The notes under the pieces: model-generated
What the model was told of the DNA's origin: nothing
Seen by the model: the letters and a program-made list of their open reading frames with translations, nothing else
Database searches by the model: none
Made by a program: the position numbers and the translations under genes
Shown here: positions 2 to 49,348 of the stretch, piece after piece
Layout of the letters: each line of letters begins with the position of its first letter
Position numbering within the stretch: position 1 is the first letter of the stretch
From: Lachnospiraceae bacterium
GTDB taxonomy: Bacteria; Bacillota; Clostridia; Lachnospirales; Lachnospiraceae
DNA: 64,000 nt
Direction of reading: 5' to 3'
NCBI GenBank assembly: GCA_017467805.1
Contig: JAFUKJ010000045.1
Coordinates: 1,392 to 65,391, forward strand

Positions 2-754
2 GATGAACTTGTATATCTTAAGGAATACAATGGTGAGGATGAGAATCTGAATATTCTGATTAATAATTATAAGCTGGCAGTAGACAGCTCGACACATACC
101 TCTCCGCCATTTGAGTTCGGTATTGAAGCTGACAAAGAATGGTATCGTGTTATTGCCCATGTCATTCGTGATGCATCAGGTAAAGAGCTGCATGTAGTTG
201 GTAAGCTGATTAACGTGCAAAAAGAAATGGAAGAGAAGCATCTGATTGAGAATAAAGCGTTAAGAGATCCTTTGACAGGACTCTTTAACCGAGACGGTTT
301 CCAAATGCAGTTTGATAAGATTTACAATGATATGGAGCATACGCTTCCTGTGACCTTTGCAGTACTGGATATGGATAATTTTAAGAATGTAAATGATACT
401 CTCGGACATGCTGGCGGTGATGAGGCGCTGAAGCTATTGGCTCGAAGTCTTGAGGAACTGTTTGGCGACAGAGGCGCCATTGCAAGATATGGAGGAGATG
501 AGTTCATTCTCTGTGTATACGGCATTGAAGAAGCCAGAGTGAGAAAATTGTTTACAGAGCTTGTTCTGAAGATGTGTGTAGAACTTCCTTATAATGGAAC
601 GATTACAAAGATTTCTATCAGCTTAGGTGCGGCGATTACCAATCAAAAGGCAAATTATACAGAACTTTTCAAGAGCGCAGATAAGGCGTTGTATGTTGCC
701 AAGGAAAATGGTAAAAATGGATTCCATTTAGTAAAGCATGGCTTAGATGAATAA
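2..754 (+). CDS. Diguanylate cyclase, PAS-GGDEF, 5' partial
   Basis: Frame is open from base 2, so the ORF-track start at 215 is internal. PAS-like C-terminus WYRVIAHVIRDASGK, then DPLTGLFNR, DMDNFKNVNDTLGH and RYGGDEF. Confidence 0.92.
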   Translation, partial: DELVYLKEYNGEDENLNILINNYKLAVDSSTHTSPPFEFGIEADKEWYRVIAHVIRDASGKELHVVGKLINVQKEMEEKHLIENKALRDPLTGLFNRDGFQMQFDKIYNDMEHTLPVTFAVLDMDNFKNVNDTLGHAGGDEALKLLARSLEELFGDRGAIARYGGDEFILCVYGIEEARVRKLFTELVLKMCVELPYNGTITKISISLGAAITNQKANYTELFKSADKALYVAKENGKNGFHLVKHGLDE

Positions 755-33498: not shown

Positions 33499-34545
33499 AT
33501 GTTTGAACCTACAATAAAAGACATAGCGAAGCTATGCGGTGTTGGTGTCAGTACAGTATCCAGGGCAATTAACAATCATCCTGATATTAATCCAGAGACC
33601 AAGGCAAAGATATTAGAGACGATTAAGGAGTATGGCTATGTACCGAATAACAGCGCGCGTAATCTGAAGCGTGTGGATGCTAAGGCGATTGCGGTACTGG
33701 TAAAGGGTATTACAAACCCGTTCTTCTCTAATATGATTAAGGTCATAGAGGAAGAGTGTAAGCGTAAGAAATATTCCATGGAGCTACAGCATATCGAGAC
33801 TGATGAGGATGAGGTAGAAGTAGCACAGAAGGTAGTAAAGGAGAAGCGTCTGCGAGGAATTATATTCCTTGGAGGCCGTTTTTCGCATTCAGAGGATAAG
33901 CTGAAAAAGCTTAATGTTCCTTTCGTATTCAGTACGGCAGGTTCCGTACCTGAGAATATCAGTAAGCATCATTATTCCAGTATCGGTGTAGATGACAGAA
34001 AGGAAGCTGCAAAGGTTATTGATTATCTGATTGGACTTGGACATACAAAGATTGCATTGATTGCAACAGAGACAGAAGCAAAGAGTATCGGTCAGCTGCG
34101 TATGCAGGGATACTTCGATGCACTTTCCAGACACAATATACCAGTAAATTACAGACTGATTTATCAGACAAGAGAGGATATTGACCATTTCTCTATGGAG
34201 AATGGTTACCAGACTGCGCAGAGACTGCTGGCATCGGGAGAGCCGTTTACAGCTGTGTTTGCAATGTCGGATACATTGGCAATAGGAGCTTCCAGAGCCT
34301 TATCAGAGGCGGGCTTGCGAATACCTGATGACGTTTCTTTGGTGGGGTATGATGGTATCGAGGTAGGAGATTATATGACACCGAAGCTGACTACCATCCG
34401 TCAGCCGATTGAGGATATGGCAAAGGCGACAACGAAGCTGCTATTTGACATTATTTCGGGTAAGAAGGAGCATCAGCATTTGGCGTATGATGCTGAGCTT
34501 CTGGAGAAGGAATCAACGAAAGCGCTGGAAGGACACGGTAACTGA
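33499..34545 (+). CDS. LacI-family regulator, possibly of maltodextrin genes
   Basis: TIKDIAKLCGVGVSTVSRAINN; YVPNNSARNL; SLVGYD; LTTIRQP. Confidence 0.9.
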   Translation: MFEPTIKDIAKLCGVGVSTVSRAINNHPDINPETKAKILETIKEYGYVPNNSARNLKRVDAKAIAVLVKGITNPFFSNMIKVIEEECKRKKYSMELQHIETDEDEVEVAQKVVKEKRLRGIIFLGGRFSHSEDKLKKLNVPFVFSTAGSVPENISKHHYSSIGVDDRKEAAKVIDYLIGLGHTKIALIATETEAKSIGQLRMQGYFDALSRHNIPVNYRLIYQTREDIDHFSMENGYQTAQRLLASGEPFTAVFAMSDTLAIGASRALSEAGLRIPDDVSLVGYDGIEVGDYMTPKLTTIRQPIEDMAKATTKLLFDIISGKKEHQHLAYDAELLEKESTKALEGHGN

Positions 34546-35750
34546 TGTTTCAGATTAAATTGTTTGGATACTTTCGAATGACAAGAAAAGGACAAATGCT
34601 GGATGAAGGAAGCATTCATTCAACCATATTGATTAAGCTTTTGGTTTTTTTACTGATACATAGGGACAGAGTGATTACAAATATCGAGCTGGAGAAGCAT
34701 TTGTGGAAGCCTCAGGAGATTGAGAATCCTGCAGATGCATTGAAGAATCTGATGTACAGACTTCGTAAGGTTTTGAATACCACTTTTGGTGAGAAAGACT
34801 ATATTCTGACTGGAAGGGGGAATTACCGCTGGAATCCTGAGCATGCAGTAGAGCTGGATGTGGATGTATTCCAACAGGAGTACGAGAAGGTTAAGGAGAA
34901 TCCAGCCAATGAAGAAATCAGACTGCGTTGTTTGGAAAAGGCAGTGGCAGTTTATAAAGGTATGTTTTTGGCCAACTTGGAAAATGACTATTGGGTAAGC
35001 AATCAAAGCATGTTATATCATTCCCGATACCTTTATCTTATGGAGATGCTGATAGAGCATCATTGGAAGCAAGAGGCCTTTGAAACGGTTGAAAGACTTT
35101 GCAGCAATTCCTTGGAGATTGATGAATACGAGGAAACTCTGAATTTGTATAAAATAAGAGCACTTCTGCGTCAGGGAAAGGACAGTCAGGCAGAGAAGTT
35201 ATTTGGTACATTGGAGCAGAACATTAAAAGCGGACTGGGAATAAAGGGTGCTGACCTGATTAGAAATTTGAAAAGGGAACTTAGACTCGAAGAGAAAACA
35301 AACGAATTGTCCAGACAGGAAATACAGAGAATGCTGGCAGAACGGACACTGGCAATGGAGAAGAAAGCAGTGCTATGTGATTTTGAGGAGTTCCGTTTTT
35401 TGTATGCGTTACAGGCTAAGAAGAATAAGCGTCGTCAGGAGGAAGGTTATGTGATTCTTTTGACGGTAGAGCTGAATGCAGATATGGAAATTAGTACTGA
35501 TAATGTAGAAGATTATCTGATGCAGTTTGCAATGGAAGGGATAGCGAAAGTGCTTGAGAGTTCGTTGAGAGACTTTGATATTGTGTCAAAGTGCAGTAAT
35601 TGTCAGTACATTATTATGCTGGACAGATGTTCCTATAATAATTCAATCAGTGTAGCGCAGCGTATTTTGAAAAAGCACGAAAGTACTGCAGGTACCAATT
35701 TTGTTAAATTGAATCTTGATATTCATAAAATCACAACGGAAGTTGAGTAA
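34545..35750 (+). CDS. SARP-like regulator: OmpR-type wHTH, BTAD and degenerate GGDEF-like C-terminus
   Basis: LLVFLLIHRDR...LW...ALKNLMYRLRK wHTH; DVDVF...AVAVYKG...YW BTAD; C-terminal LRDFDIVSKCSNCQYIIML. Overlaps the LacI stop (TGATG). Confidence 0.8.
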   Translation: MFQIKLFGYFRMTRKGQMLDEGSIHSTILIKLLVFLLIHRDRVITNIELEKHLWKPQEIENPADALKNLMYRLRKVLNTTFGEKDYILTGRGNYRWNPEHAVELDVDVFQQEYEKVKENPANEEIRLRCLEKAVAVYKGMFLANLENDYWVSNQSMLYHSRYLYLMEMLIEHHWKQEAFETVERLCSNSLEIDEYEETLNLYKIRALLRQGKDSQAEKLFGTLEQNIKSGLGIKGADLIRNLKRELRLEEKTNELSRQEIQRMLAERTLAMEKKAVLCDFEEFRFLYALQAKKNKRRQEEGYVILLTVELNADMEISTDNVEDYLMQFAMEGIAKVLESSLRDFDIVSKCSNCQYIIMLDRCSYNNSISVAQRILKKHESTAGTNFVKLNLDIHKITTEVE

Positions 35751-35933
35751 TTTGAAATTTTTAATGGAAAAAAGTAACAGATTATGTTATCATATCACCA
35801 TGCATAAGGGTTACTTGGGGAGTGACTGCTTGGTTTGACATGATAGTATCTTATGTTGAGAGATATTATGCGCATTTTAGGGAGCGTATAGTATAGAAAT
35901 CACACAGAGTATATGAGGGAGGAGGAGATAGTT

Positions 35934-36533
35934 ATGAAGAGAAGATTTTTAGCATTAGCTTCAGCAGTTATATTAGTGTTCGGCGCACAGATGACAGCTT
36001 TTGCAGCAAGTCCAACTGCAGAGGAGTTACTTGCACCAAGAGTAGACATTGTTGTTGATTTCGAGGATGTGGATGTTTCTGTTGCAGATGGTGATGTAAA
36101 GGTTTATGATCCATCCGCTGGATTTAAGGTTAGCGTTGTGGAAGCAGTGCAGGAGAGCTTAGGTGAAGAGGTTACAATCAAGAGCATTGTTGATGTTGAA
36201 GGTAAGGGTTCTGTAATATTGAATGTACCTGGAGTTGATCCAACAGAGCTCGTTAAGTTGCTTGCTTATAACAATGCGGAGCAGATGTGGGAGTTCCTTC
36301 CAATCGCTACAGCAGATGATATGGTTAGTACAGAGCTTGATGACCATAGCAAGCTTGTTATTTTAGTAGATGAGGCAGTAGCGTTAGCTGATTCAACACC
36401 TGTTGATTTAGACTCAAGTGCATTGATTGCTCCAAGAACAGGTGAGATGGGCGTTGCATTAGTTGTAGTTCTTGCATTAGGCTGTACAGCACTTGTAGCA
36501 GTTTCTAAGAAGAAACTTGCAGTTAATAATTAA
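35934..36533 (+). CDS. Secreted surface protein A with a sortase sorting signal
   Basis: Signal peptide ending AFAA; C-terminal APRTGE, hydrophobic segment and KKK tail; RBS GGAGG. Confidence 0.8.
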   Translation: MKRRFLALASAVILVFGAQMTAFAASPTAEELLAPRVDIVVDFEDVDVSVADGDVKVYDPSAGFKVSVVEAVQESLGEEVTIKSIVDVEGKGSVILNVPGVDPTELVKLLAYNNAEQMWEFLPIATADDMVSTELDDHSKLVILVDEAVALADSTPVDLDSSALIAPRTGEMGVALVVVLALGCTALVAVSKKKLAVNN

Positions 36534-36572
36534 TTTGTATTTTTATATTTAAGATATGTGTGGTTTTGATGG

Positions 36573-36602
36573 GGTCCCCGGTGTGAGTCGGGGACCTGTT
36601 TT
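36573..36602 (+). terminator. Terminator after surface protein A
   Basis: GGTCCCCG/CGGGGACC followed by TGTTTT. Confidence 0.7.
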
Positions 36603-36643: not shown

Positions 36644-37726
36644 ATGAAAGAAAAGAAAAAGTCAAAGGTTCTTAAGGGCGTTTGTGTATTTATAGTTTGT
36701 ATTGCAATATTAGCAGTAATGGGAATTGCGACATTTGCAATTGTAAGTAATATAGGAAAACAGAATCTGAAACAGAAGGCGACATCAACAGCGCCAGTGC
36801 TTACTAATGTGACAGTGAATCAAATAGAGAATGAAGAGAAAGAAGAAGAGGATGTTCTGAAAGAGGGACAGATTTATTATAACGGGCAGAAGTATCAGTA
36901 TAATGAGGACATTATGACCTTTGTAATCATGGGAATTGATTATATGGGAACGGTGGAGGAGTTATTGGCAGAGTCTATGGGAGGACAGTCTGATATGAAC
37001 TTTCTGGCGGTGCTCAATCCACATGAGAAAAGCCTAAAGCTGATTATGATTAACCGTAACAGCATGACACAGATACAGCGTTTTGCAACGGATGGAACCT
37101 ATGTGGATACTGTAGATGCACAGATAACATTACAGCATGCATATGGAACTGGAGGAACAGACAGCTGTGAGAAGATGGTTGCTGCTATTGATAATTTGAT
37201 GTATATGATACTGATTCATGGATATTTTGCTATGAACATGGGAGCGATTACGACGCTAAATGATGCCATAGGCGGTGTAGAACTTGTTGCTATGGAGGAT
37301 ATCAAGCATTACGGAACTGATATTAAAAGAGGTGAAACGGTTCACTTACTGGGTGAGGATGCTTTCTGGTATGCAAAGTTTCGTAATCAACATATTCCAG
37401 GTTCGGCGAATGCCAGACTGGAGCGACAGAAGCAGTATTTAAATGCTTTTCTTCAGAAGATGAAGCGAATGGTTAAGGAGGATATGGCATTACTAGTAGA
37501 TTTGTACAAGATTGTAGCAGAATATTCAGTAACAGATGTGTCAGTAGATGAGATGACTTATCTTGTATCTCAGATGATTGGATATAGCTTTGATTTGGGC
37601 AGCATATATTCCGTACCTGGAGAAACAGTAGTAAATGGTGAGTATGAAGAATATTATGTGGATGAAGAAGCCTTGTATGAAATGATTGTAGACATATTCT
37701 ATGAGCCGATAATGGAGGGAGAGTAG
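36644..37726 (+). CDS. LCP (LytR-CpsA-Psr) family protein 1
   Basis: N-terminal TM; GQSDM, INRNS, QHAYG, DAIGGV, YAKFR, ARLERQ, FYEP. Confidence 0.85.
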   Translation: MKEKKKSKVLKGVCVFIVCIAILAVMGIATFAIVSNIGKQNLKQKATSTAPVLTNVTVNQIENEEKEEEDVLKEGQIYYNGQKYQYNEDIMTFVIMGIDYMGTVEELLAESMGGQSDMNFLAVLNPHEKSLKLIMINRNSMTQIQRFATDGTYVDTVDAQITLQHAYGTGGTDSCEKMVAAIDNLMYMILIHGYFAMNMGAITTLNDAIGGVELVAMEDIKHYGTDIKRGETVHLLGEDAFWYAKFRNQHIPGSANARLERQKQYLNAFLQKMKRMVKEDMALLVDLYKIVAEYSVTDVSVDEMTYLVSQMIGYSFDLGSIYSVPGETVVNGEYEEYYVDEEALYEMIVDIFYEPIMEGE

Positions 37727-38560
37727 ATGATGAATAAACGCATGTGGAAGATTATTCTGACAGTGGCTTCGATAGGGCTTGTATTATGCGTCGGTTATAT
37801 CGTGTATTACTCTTATTGCCACATGGGTCAGGGACAGCAGGAGGATTATTATGAGCAGTTGGCAGAGAATGCGACTGCATCAATAGAGGTCGAGACAGAA
37901 GTGGAAATGATGACAATAGAGGAGAGTACAACGTCGGAGGAGCAAGTAGCAGAGACAGAAGAGAATAAGTACATATCCGAGATAGATTTTCAGAAGCTTC
38001 AGTTAGAAGAAAATGCAGACATCTATGCGTGGATACGGATGGATAATACAGTTATTGATTATCCTGTATTGCAGCATCCGTCGGATGATACCTATTATCT
38101 GATGCATAATATCGATGGAAGTTATGGGTATCCAGGCTGTATCTATGCAGAGCTTTATAATAGCAATACATTTGAAGACCCTGTTACGGTATTATATGGA
38201 CACAATATGAAGAATGGTACGATGTTTGGCTCACTGCATCAGTTTGAAGATGAAAGCTTTTTTGAAGAGAATAAAGAGTTCGTAATTTATATGCCTGATA
38301 AAACGCTGGTATATGATATTGCAATTGCGAAGGAAACAGATGATAAGCGTATTACGGTATGGTACAATTTTGAGGAAGAGACCAGTTATCAGAAATATAT
38401 TGATGAGCTGCTTTCAGGTGAAGAATCGGAGCTGTATCGTAGAAGGGAAGAGATAGAGATTACTACAGAGGACAAGTTGGTAGTTTTACAGACTTGTGTA
38501 TCTGAGCGAAAGTCTAACAGATATGTTGTCGTAGGTGTTTTGCGAGAGATAATTGAATAG
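37727..38560 (+). CDS. srtB: Class B sortase
   Basis: TM anchor; DIYAWIRMDNTVIDYPVLQ; YGHNMKNGTMFGSL (His); LQTC (Cys); RYVV (Arg). Confidence 0.9.
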   Translation: MMNKRMWKIILTVASIGLVLCVGYIVYYSYCHMGQGQQEDYYEQLAENATASIEVETEVEMMTIEESTTSEEQVAETEENKYISEIDFQKLQLEENADIYAWIRMDNTVIDYPVLQHPSDDTYYLMHNIDGSYGYPGCIYAELYNSNTFEDPVTVLYGHNMKNGTMFGSLHQFEDESFFEENKEFVIYMPDKTLVYDIAIAKETDDKRITVWYNFEEETSYQKYIDELLSGEESELYRRREEIEITTEDKLVVLQTCVSERKSNRYVVVGVLREIIE

Positions 38561-38715
38561 AATAATGTCTGTCAAAATAATAAAAAAGATAGCAAATAAC
38601 AGATAAAAGTGTTATAATGGGTAAAAGGGAATTGAAATTTACTTATGTTATGCGAAAGGCAGCTTGGTCAGGCATATAGTGACGCATACTGAATCTTGGA
38701 AAGTGGGGATTAGGT

Positions 38716-39336
38716 ATGAGAGAAAAGTATGTAAAACGGGGAATGCGCGTATTCGCATTATTAATATGTACTGTATTTGTTACTTTGATGGTAGGAATGC
38801 CTGAAGAAGATGCTACAATTTTTATTGATGAGTGGGAACAGGAGACACCTCTTGCAGATACATTACCGTTAGATGAGTATTATGTCATATTGGCAGAGAC
38901 CTTGGTACTGCTTCCGCAGAATATTATAGAACAGTTTTATGCGGATGGCTGGGGAATTGTAATTACGCAGGAAAGTCTTTCTGATATGTACTATAAAGGT
39001 ATTTATAATAATGTTATGGCGGTTACGGATGGTTATATTAAAGTAATTTGGATATCTGCCAGTGAAAAGTCAATTCGTAATTCGGTGATTCACGAGATGG
39101 GACATTATATACAGTTTACCTATGATTTCCCGAATAAGACAGAAGAGTTTGAGGCGATTTATGAGGCAGAGCGTAAGAAGTTTGTGGTAGTTGGCGGAAG
39201 TGCTGCTCAGGCAAGAAGCAGCAGCTTAGAGTATTTCGCAGAAGCATTTCAGGAGTACTTTTTACATCCTGACAGTTTGTTAGAAAACACGCCGCTTACC
39301 TATCAATACATAGCAAACTATGTTGCAAATTTTTAA
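38716..39336 (+). CDS. Zinc metalloprotease, anthrax-lethal-factor-like (ATLF/PPEP-type) domain
   Basis: Hydrophobic N-terminus; IHEMGH (HExxH); EYFAEAF; C-terminal PLTYQYI. Confidence 0.75.
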   Translation: MREKYVKRGMRVFALLICTVFVTLMVGMPEEDATIFIDEWEQETPLADTLPLDEYYVILAETLVLLPQNIIEQFYADGWGIVITQESLSDMYYKGIYNNVMAVTDGYIKVIWISASEKSIRNSVIHEMGHYIQFTYDFPNKTEEFEAIYEAERKKFVVVGGSAAQARSSSLEYFAEAFQEYFLHPDSLLENTPLTYQYIANYVANF

Positions 39337-39368
39337 ACATATATTAGCTGATTAATGAGAATATTAGA

Positions 39369-39398
39369 AAAAGGCTGACGGCTGTCAGTCTTTTTTTG
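39369..39398 (+). terminator. Terminator after the metalloprotease
   Basis: AGGCTGAC/GTCAGTCT plus T-run. Confidence 0.75.
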
Positions 39399-39656
39399 AT
39401 GTATACGAACAATGTTCATTTATGACATGGCAATCAAGACAAAAATTGTTCATTTCAAAGGAGGATTTTTGTGAACTTTACTATGGAAAATTAGATTGTT
39501 TTATGATATAGTAATATCCGCATGAGCATTTCTGAGTATACATAATAATTTAAATCATTAAGAGAGAAATGTTTTTGAGGGAGATATTATACGTTTCGCG
39601 ATTGTAAATGTGTAATATAGAAAATCACACAAATATTCATGGAGGAGGAGTATATC

Positions 39657-48049: not shown

Positions 48050-49348
48050 ATGAATAAATATGTTATTATCCCAGGATGTTCAGATTTAAATAGAGGTGAT
48101 CAGGCATTAGTATGGGAAACCAAACGCTTGGCAGAAGATGCAGGATTTAAAGGAGAATTTTATTTAACATCAGAAAGAAATGAACCTGTTGAACAAAGTA
48201 AGAAAATTGGATTAAAGATTATTCCACCAATTTTGGAGCATCCATCTCGTAAATTCCGTAGTAAAGAGAATATCAGCTATACTATGTCATTGAAGATGAA
48301 GTGGGGATTGGTAGCGGTTTTTGATTTGTTGGGCAGCATGTTCATTTTGTGCAATGCTACAAGAGGGATTGCAAAGCGTTTTTTGAGTCAGGAAAAGAGG
48401 GAAGCAGTTCAGATACTGGAAGATGCAGATGCTTTATTCATGAAGGGCGGCGGCTTGCTGCAAACATATGGAGGATTATCTTCTACATATAGTATGTACT
48501 TTTGGACTTATCCAATTTTGTTGGCGAATAAAATGAAAAAGCCTGTATATGTTATGCCAAATTCCTTTGGACCTTTTGAAGGACCGTTTGTAAAGGCAAT
48601 AGCTAAAAAGGCTTTAAGCGGATGTAAGGTGCTTACTTCGAGAGAAACATTATCACAAGATATGGTTAAGGACGATTTGGGATTAGATATACAGAATTAT
48701 CCAGATTTAGCATTTACATTACCTAAGGCAGATTTGAATAAAGATGAAATTTTCAAAAAGTATAATCTGCCTAGTGATAGAAAACTAGTAGCATTTACAA
48801 TGCGTCCATATCGTTTTCCTAATTCTGAGAATCCTGAAGAGGCGTATGAGACTTTTAAACATGAACTTGCAGAGTTTATATCTTGGGTATATGAACAGGG
48901 ATTTATGCCTGTTATTGTAGAGCATACATTGGCAGTTAATGCACATGAGAATGATGGTGCATGTATTGCAGATGTAACGAAAATGATTGAACAGGAAAAA
49001 TATCGTATTATTTCTAATGTTGATTATGATTGTCATGATTTAAAGTGTATTTATAGTTTTTGTGATTATATTGTTGGTACACGTTTTCATTCAGTTATTT
49101 TCTCATTTGGTTGCGATGTTCCAGGTATTGCTATTGCATATACTGGAAATAAGTCACAGGGAATTATGCATGATATAGGATTGGATGATTATGTTATTAA
49201 TATTGCTGATGTAAAGGCAGAGTTATTAAAACAGAAATTTGCTGACTTGATTGAGAATGAGACAACTGTAGTTTCAAAAGTAAGAGCATATAGAGAATTG
49301 GCGGAGGAATCTAGAAACGCTTTAATTGCTATGTGCAAGAATAATTAG
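48050..49348 (+). CDS. Polysaccharide pyruvyl transferase family (WcaK/CsaB-like)
   Basis: NRGDQA, KGGG, NSFGPF, SRE, PDLAF, GTRFHS. Confidence 0.85.
   Translation: MNKYVIIPGCSDLNRGDQALVWETKRLAEDAGFKGEFYLTSERNEPVEQSKKIGLKIIPPILEHPSRKFRSKENISYTMSLKMKWGLVAVFDLLGSMFILCNATRGIAKRFLSQEKREAVQILEDADALFMKGGGLLQTYGGLSSTYSMYFWTYPILLANKMKKPVYVMPNSFGPFEGPFVKAIAKKALSGCKVLTSRETLSQDMVKDDLGLDIQNYPDLAFTLPKADLNKDEIFKKYNLPSDRKLVAFTMRPYRFPNSENPEEAYETFKHELAEFISWVYEQGFMPVIVEHTLAVNAHENDGACIADVTKMIEQEKYRIISNVDYDCHDLKCIYSFCDYIVGTRFHSVIFSFGCDVPGIAIAYTGNKSQGIMHDIGLDDYVINIADVKAELLKQKFADLIENETTVVSKVRAYRELAEESRNALIAMCKNN

Follow-up and report, generated by a model that had tools for sequence, protein, structure and literature searches.

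What does a clostridial transcription regulator sense when its DNA-binding half is that of a SARP and its C-terminal half resembles a GGDEF domain whose catalytic motif is missing? The question is raised by a gene in a 64,000-nucleotide stretch of DNA from a Lachnospiraceae bacterium (contig JAFUKJ010000045.1), here called the window. Its product combines an OmpR-type winged helix and a bacterial transcriptional activator domain (BTAD) with a truncated GGDEF homolog, in which the active site (A-site) is dead and the residues of a cyclic di-GMP (c-di-GMP) inhibitory site (I-site) are kept. Judging from sequence comparisons and structure models, we consider it probable that the protein is a c-di-GMP-sensing one-component SARP activator, sensing being the best supported of its predicted functions, and we regard it as a strong candidate for a c-di-GMP-controlled switch of a new type, which would act on genes of the cell surface in gut Clostridia. 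The gene and its domains are located as follows, with model confidence given as the predicted local distance difference test (pLDDT).

34545-35750, + strand: gene of the SARP regulator with degenerate GGDEF domain (P0001), 401 amino acids; an open reading frame (ORF) with full-length homologs of about 400 amino acids
34545-34856, + strand: OmpR-type winged-helix DNA-binding domain, residues 1-104; Trans_reg_C match, AlphaFold pLDDT about 90, Foldseek matches to AfsR (8k60, 8hvr) and EmbR (2fez)
34857-35297, + strand: BTAD, all-helical, residues 105-251; Pfam match, AfsR and EmbR matched by Foldseek across about 255 columns
35286-35363, + strand: low-confidence linker of about 25 residues (248-273); AlphaFold pLDDT below 50
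35370-35729, + strand: truncated GGDEF domain, catalytically dead, residues 276-395 (120 residues); profiles, AlphaFold models and Foldseek

Domain architecture of the regulator

How secure is the assignment of the two halves? The ORF coordinates were checked, and Pfam places Trans_reg_C at residues 30-92 (35.2 bits against a cutoff of 26.2, E=1.3e-8) and BTAD at residues 104-247 (53.7 bits against a cutoff of 22.1, E=3.9e-14), the latter match covering the whole profile from position 1 to 146. When the full-length AlphaFold model (pLDDT 81) is compared with known structures, the six best Foldseek matches are AfsR and EmbR (E between 1e-9 and 1e-7), and all the remaining ones are GGDEF cyclases. 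The regulator is a SARP, with an OmpR-type winged helix followed by a BTAD. An earlier note on this DNA, made by a model from the letters alone, had named a SARP-type regulator at this place, and rightly so; every peptide string that it quoted is present in the ORF translation.

The C-terminal half is less readily recognized. Looked at in this single protein, its resemblance to GGDEF domains is marginal, because PF00990 stays below threshold (15.4-15.8 bits against a cutoff of 23.8) and NCBIfam returns weak matches to the cyclases SiaD and DgcA; the regulator is absent from the 26 above-cutoff PF00990 matches of its genome. We collected and aligned 29 full-length homologs, four distant ones of which carry a precomputed PF00990 match, and built a C-terminal-domain profile from 21 family members. 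Searched against the PDB, this profile matched 34 sequences, nearly all of them GGDEF cyclases, with SadC as the best (E=4.5e-6), and PF00990 in turn matched 18 of the 21 members individually, with a best E of 1.1e-7. An AlphaFold model of the domain alone reached a pLDDT of 88.9 and a predicted template modeling score (pTM) of 0.82, and its top 50 Foldseek neighbors in the PDB are all GGDEF domains, with query-normalized template modeling scores of 0.55-0.76 and root-mean-square deviations of 3-5 Å. The C-terminal domain is a GGDEF homolog by a resemblance that exceeds chance, and its identification is secure. In the models its topology runs alpha0-beta1-alpha1/2-beta2-beta3-alpha3-beta4, whereupon the chain stops, with no alpha4 or beta5. 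The GGDEF topology proposed in the earlier note thus holds for the fold, for which profile, PF00990 and Foldseek evidence agree, and fails for its completeness, the truncation after beta4 having escaped notice.

Two other families were considered for this domain and set aside. The GGDEF_2 domain of PucR-type regulators (PF17853) matched 4 of the 21 members weakly (best E=0.045, against 18 of 21 for PF00990) and the regulator itself not at all. Weak Pfam matches to Sad1_UNC, below cutoff, appeared in 2 of the 21 (E=0.0018-0.015), and since the fold search returned GGDEF domains only, we treat them as noise.

The inhibitory-site triad and its carriers

Which parts of a cyclase does this domain retain, and how widely? 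A profile search over 1.8 billion cluster representatives (clusters at 50% identity) returned at least 150 full-length matches of about 400 amino acids at E<=1e-88 and 1,619 matches at E<=1e-30. The family extends over many Lachnospiraceae (Roseburia, Agathobacter, Acetatifactor, Blautia, Lactonifactor, Robinsoniella), Eubacteriaceae and Clostridium paraputrificum. Conservation was counted in 140 aligned representatives, whose C-terminal domains have a median identity of 26% to that of the regulator. In alignments to SiaD, SadC and a Geobacter GGDEF domain, LRDFDIVSKCSNCQY falls onto LR(E/D)xD..(A)RYGG(D/E)EF; RDFD is followed by the spacer IVSKC and then by S351, which is the canonical five-residue distance to the former GGDEF motif. 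PleD matches with no gap (profile positions 64-105 to 2wb4 residues 353-394), which equates R342 with R359, D345 with D362, SNCQY (351-355) with GGEEF (368-372) and R373 with R390. The residues concerned are these.

35430-35432, + strand: R296, conserved Arg at the end of helix alpha0; Arg in 135 of the 140 representatives
35568-35579, + strand: RDFD, residues 342-345, I-site RxxD; SiaD, SadC, Geobacter and PleD alignments
35595-35609, + strand: SNCQY, residues 351-355, where GG[DE]EF would stand, with the family motif S-x-x-Q-[YF]; alignments
35661-35663, + strand: R373 on helix alpha3, third primary I-site Arg (PleD R390); ungapped PleD match

In PleD, c-di-GMP is held by R359, D362 and R390, the residues of the primary inhibitory site, and R367, D370 and R402 are their equivalents in PelD. 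By its position, R296 might be, as a speculation, the counterpart of the secondary I-site Arg (R313 in PleD, R198 in WspR).

Could such a domain still produce c-di-GMP? The metal-binding Asp of the beta1 box D-x-D-x-F-K, present in 21 of the 26 canonical domains of the genome, is T307 in the regulator, and its column holds Thr or Ser in 138 of the 140 family members; GG at the A-site occurs in none of them. Because there is no GG, the metal-binding Asp is a Thr and the phosphate-binding C-terminal part of the fold is absent, the sequence excludes catalysis, and the A-site is dead. The I-site is preserved: R342 is kept in 136 of the 140 representatives, D345 in 139 and R373 in 134, and the complete Arg/Asp/Arg triad in 133 (95%). 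Comparable conservation is found at S351 (122/140), Q354 (137/140), C278 (137/140) and F283 (140/140). The earlier note had proposed that RDFD supplies the RxxD motif, that SNCQY has taken the place of GGDEF, that the domain is catalytically dead and that RxxD conservation among homologs would be telling; alignment register and counts agree with it on each of these points. The third I-site Arg, R373, was not known to it, and the conservation of this residue too makes the predicted case stronger. At the level of sequence, the conserved I-site is secure.

Is the triad perhaps simply what a GGDEF fold needs? As a control within the genome, 25 of its 26 canonical GGDEF domains were aligned with its three dead modules. 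RxxD is found in one of the 25 canonical domains, an Arg in the alpha3 column in three and all three residues together in none, whereas the triad is complete in all three dead modules. Canonical domains of the same genome lack the triad and the dead modules keep it, so that a GGDEF fold can exist without it.

The module is also found outside the regulator. A paralog of the whole SARP protein (contig C8, L009:6804-8024, - strand; 406 amino acids, 27% identity) carries the motifs RRGD...SPSQF...MQRL. More informative is a 356-amino-acid protein on contig C42, 25465-26535 (L010:2466-3536, - strand), in which a coiled coil is joined to an intact GGDEF domain (RLGGDEF; Pfam E=5.8e-42) and a dead module (E=1.2e-23 with our C-terminal-domain profile). 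In its I-site column the active domain reads APGD, and the module reads RKGD...SSCQM...IDRI. This combination of cyclase and dead module recurs in 114 full-length proteins of 39-96% identity, some with an added receiver domain. Their active domains keep GGDEF in 113 of 114 cases and lack the Arg of their own I-site in 107, while the modules have both the Arg and the Asp of RxxD in 114 of 114, the alpha3 Arg in 113, the Gln in 114 and the complete triad in 112; an active cyclase without RxxD is paired with a triad-bearing module in 105 of the 114 fusions. Since cyclases without an I-site of their own carry a module with a perfect one, the dead module fits a portable c-di-GMP-binding unit, and in these proteins it may represent an outsourced site of product inhibition. 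The cyclase fusion is the most specific support obtained for the predicted binding of c-di-GMP by the module. The C42 fusion gene lies in an operon with genes for an Hpt-domain protein and a REC-LytTR regulator.

Would a ligand be available? Above cutoff, the 3-Mb genome (95% complete) encodes 26 GGDEF and 12 EAL domains, and GG[DE]EF is intact in 18 of the 25 aligned canonical domains, from which we conclude that the organism is predicted to make c-di-GMP. In a class-level sample of 150 genomes, 12 had full-length module matches, and the 11 module-bearing genomes other than ours have 3-18 strong GGDEF domains each; the presence of predicted cyclases in every module-bearing genome tested (11/11) is a necessary condition for the reading and only that. 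A 5'-truncated ORF at the start of the window (2-754, + strand) ends in one of the 26 canonical GGDEF domains (E=1.4e-35), and in one class-level relative (G101:C44:267872-269358) about 700 bp separate a module-bearing ORF of 427 amino acids from a canonical GGDEF gene downstream of it. As to the riboswitch classes for c-di-GMP (reviewed in PMC12564702), Rfam gave no match in the window and class II none in the genome, and the class-I search was uninformative, as control genomes gave no matches.

Candidate targets and a proposed switch

Which genes might the regulator control? Its surroundings in the window comprise the following features, of which those at 36644-42799 (+ strand) form the candidate regulon as a whole.

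33499-34545, + strand: LacI-family regulator gene, coupled to the SARP gene; Pfam, TGATG overlap
35751-35912, + strand: intergenic region upstream of the protein A gene, candidate operator region of 162 bp with promoter-like sites; conservation in four orthologous loci
35913-36533, + strand: protein A, secreted, 206 amino acids, with an APRTG-type sorting signal that orthologs also carry; candidate target
36572-36597: terminator-like hairpin after the protein A gene
36644-37726, + strand: LCP protein, candidate regulon; Pfam, L001 synteny
37727-38560, + strand: sortase, candidate regulon; Pfam, L001 synteny
38716-39336, + strand: M34/ATLF-family metalloprotease of 206 amino acids, directly after the sortase gene, candidate regulon; Pfam ATLF
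39639-40334, + strand: protein B, a second surface protein, candidate regulon; L001 synteny
40504-41955, + strand: second LCP protein, candidate regulon; Pfam, L001 synteny
41999-42799, + strand: transglutaminase-like protein, candidate regulon; Pfam, L001 synteny
43084-49348, + strand: start of a capsule/exopolysaccharide locus with CpsB/CapC phosphatase, Wzz, CpsD-like P-loop protein, initiating sugar transferase, GT4 glycosyltransferase and pyruvyl transferase; Pfam, L001 synteny

On its upstream side, the ATG of the regulator shares one base with the TGA of the LacI-family gene (TGATG; ctgatg in the sequence), so that, by this overlap of stop and start, the two genes are translationally coupled. 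The LacI-family gene lies downstream of genes for glycogen phosphorylase and 4-alpha-glucanotransferase (MalQ); because it overlaps the SARP gene here, a regulator of surface genes may be co-expressed with genes of maltodextrin and glycogen metabolism. The three closest loci (73-77% identity) keep this layout together with the MalQ and LacI genes upstream, and the coupling of LacI and SARP genes is kept only in the closest clade (loci L001, L011 and L012).

Elsewhere in the family the neighbors are of a similar kind. Across named genomes, 78 loci were compared, and a giant secreted VWA/PA14 protein (median 1,320 amino acids) is encoded one to three genes downstream of the regulator in 50, MucBP-like anchored proteins just upstream in 49 and a SipW-like S26 signal peptidase in 33, and SpaA pilins, LPXTG proteins and sortases occur in further loci near relatives of the regulator. 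Adhesins, fibers and surface polymers are classic outputs of c-di-GMP. Judging by adjacency in the window and by this family-wide synteny with adhesin clusters, the regulator may control the adjacent surface-protein and exopolysaccharide region. In 40 of the 78 loci (for example L074 and L025) the gene directly downstream encodes a cytoplasmic protein of about 146 amino acids that has no Pfam match and may act as a co-regulator or anti-activator; it is not found beside the window's copy of the regulator. The C8 paralog stands head-to-head with the gene for a 137-amino-acid homolog of this protein, and also divergent from the paralog is a gene for a secreted coiled-coil protein of 1,488 amino acids with a long acidic tail of Ser/Asp/Glu repeats.

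Do the upstream regions hint at common control? In footprinting across four orthologs, the 162-bp intergenic region is strongly conserved and has no repeat structure. Two blocks are common to the regions upstream of proteins A and B (35840-35912 and 39560-39640), namely TTGAGRGAGATATTATACG, which contains a -10-like TATTAT, and ATATAGAAA(A)TCACACA, which stands just before the ribosome-binding site; both are kept in three orthologous loci. As the two upstream regions share both conserved blocks, co-regulation of the protein A and protein B genes is suggested.

How might c-di-GMP operate such a switch? I-sites typically bind c-di-GMP in the form of an intercalated dimer, which connects the primary site with a second Arg that another domain or subunit supplies, as in PleD and WspR. 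For the regulator, we infer that ligand binds at the I-site, how it would dimerize the protein, in which direction it would regulate and which genes are targets. We envision a scenario whereby the SARP module, winged helix plus BTAD, would bind promoter DNA and recruit RNA polymerase, while the GGDEF remnant, having lost catalysis together with its last alpha/beta unit and retained the I-site (R342, D345, R373), would bind c-di-GMP supplied by the many cyclases of the genome, probably as an intercalated dimer. Binding might then alter the oligomeric state or the arrangement of the domains. In the simplest version, the ligand would link one dead module either to another or to the BTAD, thereby setting the pairing of the DNA-binding domains, which, once paired on a promoter, would switch on the adjacent cell-surface genes. 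Likely targets in the window would be protein A, the cassette of LCP, sortase and M34 protease and possibly the capsule locus, and in most relatives the giant VWA/PA14 adhesin, the SipW-like peptidase and fiber genes. SARPs bind tandem direct repeats that overlap the -35 region and lie upstream of the -10 element by 8 nucleotides, with two DNA-binding domains side by side (PMC11301090). Since they act in such pairs on direct repeats, pairing driven by a ligand would be a natural switch.

Rival readings and known systems

Might the conserved residues serve something other than c-di-GMP? Conceivably, another nucleotide, such as (p)ppGpp, GTP, cGAMP or c-di-AMP, is sensed through the same pocket or through the S-x-x-Q-[YF] hairpin, which would still yield a ligand-controlled SARP. 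The conservation of Q354 and S351, on a par with that of the triad, speaks for a second site under selection. However, the Arg/Asp/Arg triad is the specific signature of c-di-GMP binding at I-sites (PleD, WspR, PelD), no element for GTP binding is present (neither GG nor the metal-binding Asp nor the alpha4 Lys/Arg region), and the module is fused to synthases of c-di-GMP that lack an I-site of their own. Although PDB entries 9g85 and 9g86 present PleD with (p)ppGpp alongside c-di-GMP, we regard sensing of another nucleotide as unlikely.

Alternatively, no ligand is involved and the module is a scaffold that pairs SARP protomers constitutively, with Arg, Asp and Arg forming structural or inter-subunit salt bridges. 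GGDEF domains do dimerize and SARPs do need two DNA-binding domains on adjacent repeats; yet the fold can do without the triad, given that 24 of the 25 canonical GGDEF domains of the genome lack RxxD, exactly the three ligand-contacting residues persist, at 95%, across domains of about 26% identity, and the same pattern recurs in the cyclase fusion, where a feedback site makes sense. To this constitutive pairing we give slightly less credence still. The module might also be a docking surface for a partner, either an active cyclase, in local signaling comparable to that of DgcM and MlrA in E. coli, or the protein of about 146 amino acids, so that protein contact rather than free c-di-GMP would be sensed. 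Such a view would account for the frequent position of that protein's gene behind the regulator and for its homolog next to the C8 paralog, and direct contacts between cyclase and receptor are documented for Bacillus subtilis (PMC7064775). Against it, no such partner gene accompanies the regulator in the window, cyclase genes show no enrichment in the neighborhood and the conservation of precisely the I-site triad is left unexplained; we find docking the least probable of these alternatives, and note that it and c-di-GMP sensing are not mutually exclusive. Sensing of c-di-GMP is favored over all of them because exactly the three residues that contact c-di-GMP survive and because the module sits on cyclases devoid of an I-site.

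Several observations nevertheless weigh against c-di-GMP sensing or against the targets that we assign to it. The arrangement of the domains relative to each other in the full-length model is of low confidence (pTM 0.58), and we know of no characterized I-site receptor with so short a form of GGDEF, lacking alpha4 and beta5. Conservation of S351, Q354, C278 and F283 is on the level of the triad and points to a second constrained surface, which a c-di-GMP model does not explain. Cyclase genes lie within 6 kb of the regulator in 3 of the 78 loci, a density that does not exceed background. Neither 35745-35915 nor the L001 ortholog yielded tandem direct repeats, and a GTGTGAC promoter box was rejected, since the window has a single copy, which lies within a gene, where chance would give 4.5. 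Finally, the neighborhood of this clade departs from the family norm in its LacI coupling and adjoining maltodextrin genes, which renders the targets here less certain.

A broader version of c-di-GMP sensing is put forward tentatively, at a little short of even confidence. The truncated dead GGDEF domain (LRxxD-5 residues-SxxQ[YF]...R) would be a portable, stand-alone c-di-GMP cassette that standard domain models miss and that Clostridia employ in two ways at least. Joined to a SARP, it would form a large and so far unrecognized family of activators responsive to c-di-GMP (at least 150, possibly about 1,600 clusters at 50% identity) that, in commensals of gut and rumen, controls adhesins, fibers, pili and surface proteins associated with capsules, with an intercalated dimer bridging the protomers on the promoter; placed behind cyclases without RxxD, it would provide outsourced product inhibition.

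How does the regulator compare with known receptors? PelD, from Pseudomonas and from the Gram-positive Pel system (PMC7112168), has the same GGDEF domain with dead A-site, RxxD five residues upstream and an alpha3 Arg, and further degenerate-GGDEF I-site receptors are PopA of Caulobacter (PMC12564702), SgmT of Myxococcus (PMC3509222), PssE of Listeria (PMC4125290) and YdaK of Bacillus subtilis (PMC5422440, PMC7064775). Outputs in exopolysaccharide or surface structures and host genomes rich in cyclases and phosphodiesterases are shared features. Those receptors, however, have enzymes, kinases or proteolysis adaptors as their targets and in no case a DNA-binding domain of their own, whereas the module described here is fused to a SARP, truncated after beta4 and equipped with its own S-x-x-Q-[YF] hairpin, and its binding of c-di-GMP is predicted. 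On the output side, AfsR (NB-ARC and TPR; PDB 8k60, 8hvr; PMC11301090) and EmbR (FHA; PDB 2fez, 2ff4) likewise combine the SARP core with a C-terminal signal-input domain; they come from actinobacteria and have ATP with phosphorylation, or phospho-Thr, as their input, in contrast to the dead-GGDEF input in Clostridia (Lachnospiraceae and relatives). The proposed logic, in which a ligand alters oligomerization or DNA binding at matrix and adhesion genes, is that of FleQ, VpsT, BldD (dimerized by c-di-GMP), MrkH, Clp and LtmA (PMC4151990, PMC3359988, PMC3526308), none of which has a GGDEF-derived I-site sensor or a SARP output. Regulators of the PucR/CdaR type (GGDEF_2, PF17853) are also transcription regulators with a degenerate GGDEF-like domain. 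To our knowledge, PucR proteins have a different helix-turn-helix and neither a conserved RxxD nor an established link to c-di-GMP.

In the literature searched, we found no description of a SARP or BTAD joined to GGDEF or c-di-GMP, of a degenerate GGDEF domain in such a transcription factor, or of any SARP linked to c-di-GMP, and a 2025 review of effectors mentions neither SARP nor OmpR-type effectors. What appears new, by sequence, is that a GGDEF remnant reduced to its I-site is fused directly to a SARP; degenerate-GGDEF receptors and c-di-GMP-binding transcription factors as such are known. If confirmed, the regulator would define a new effector class, a SARP activator with a built-in I-site sensor, as well as a first link of a SARP to second-messenger sensing and a first functional SARP role outside actinobacterial antibiotic regulation. 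It would also give a direct handle on the switching of adhesins, fibers and surface glycopolymers in Lachnospiraceae that abound in gut and rumen (Roseburia, Agathobacter, Blautia and relatives). Because its domain falls below Pfam thresholds, the family escapes present censuses of c-di-GMP proteins, and it is tractable to experiment, the regulator being small and soluble-looking, with three obvious point mutants and cultured relatives. Members of the family occur in the cultured, non-pathogenic strains Agathobacter ruminis JK623, Lactonifactor longoviformis DSM 17459 and Acetitomaculum ruminis DSM 5522.

Signaling by c-di-GMP in Clostridia is understood mostly through riboswitches, and protein effectors, especially transcription factors, are largely unknown there despite dozens of cyclases and phosphodiesterases. 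In Clostridioides difficile, c-di-GMP riboswitches control sortase-anchored adhesins and a Pro-Pro endopeptidase, to which the sortase substrate, sortase and M34-family metalloprotease downstream of the regulator are comparable. The difference lies in the sensor, which in that organism is a riboswitch; the window has none and the genome none of class II. By analogy, a protein sensor may here fill the role that riboswitches play in Clostridioides difficile.

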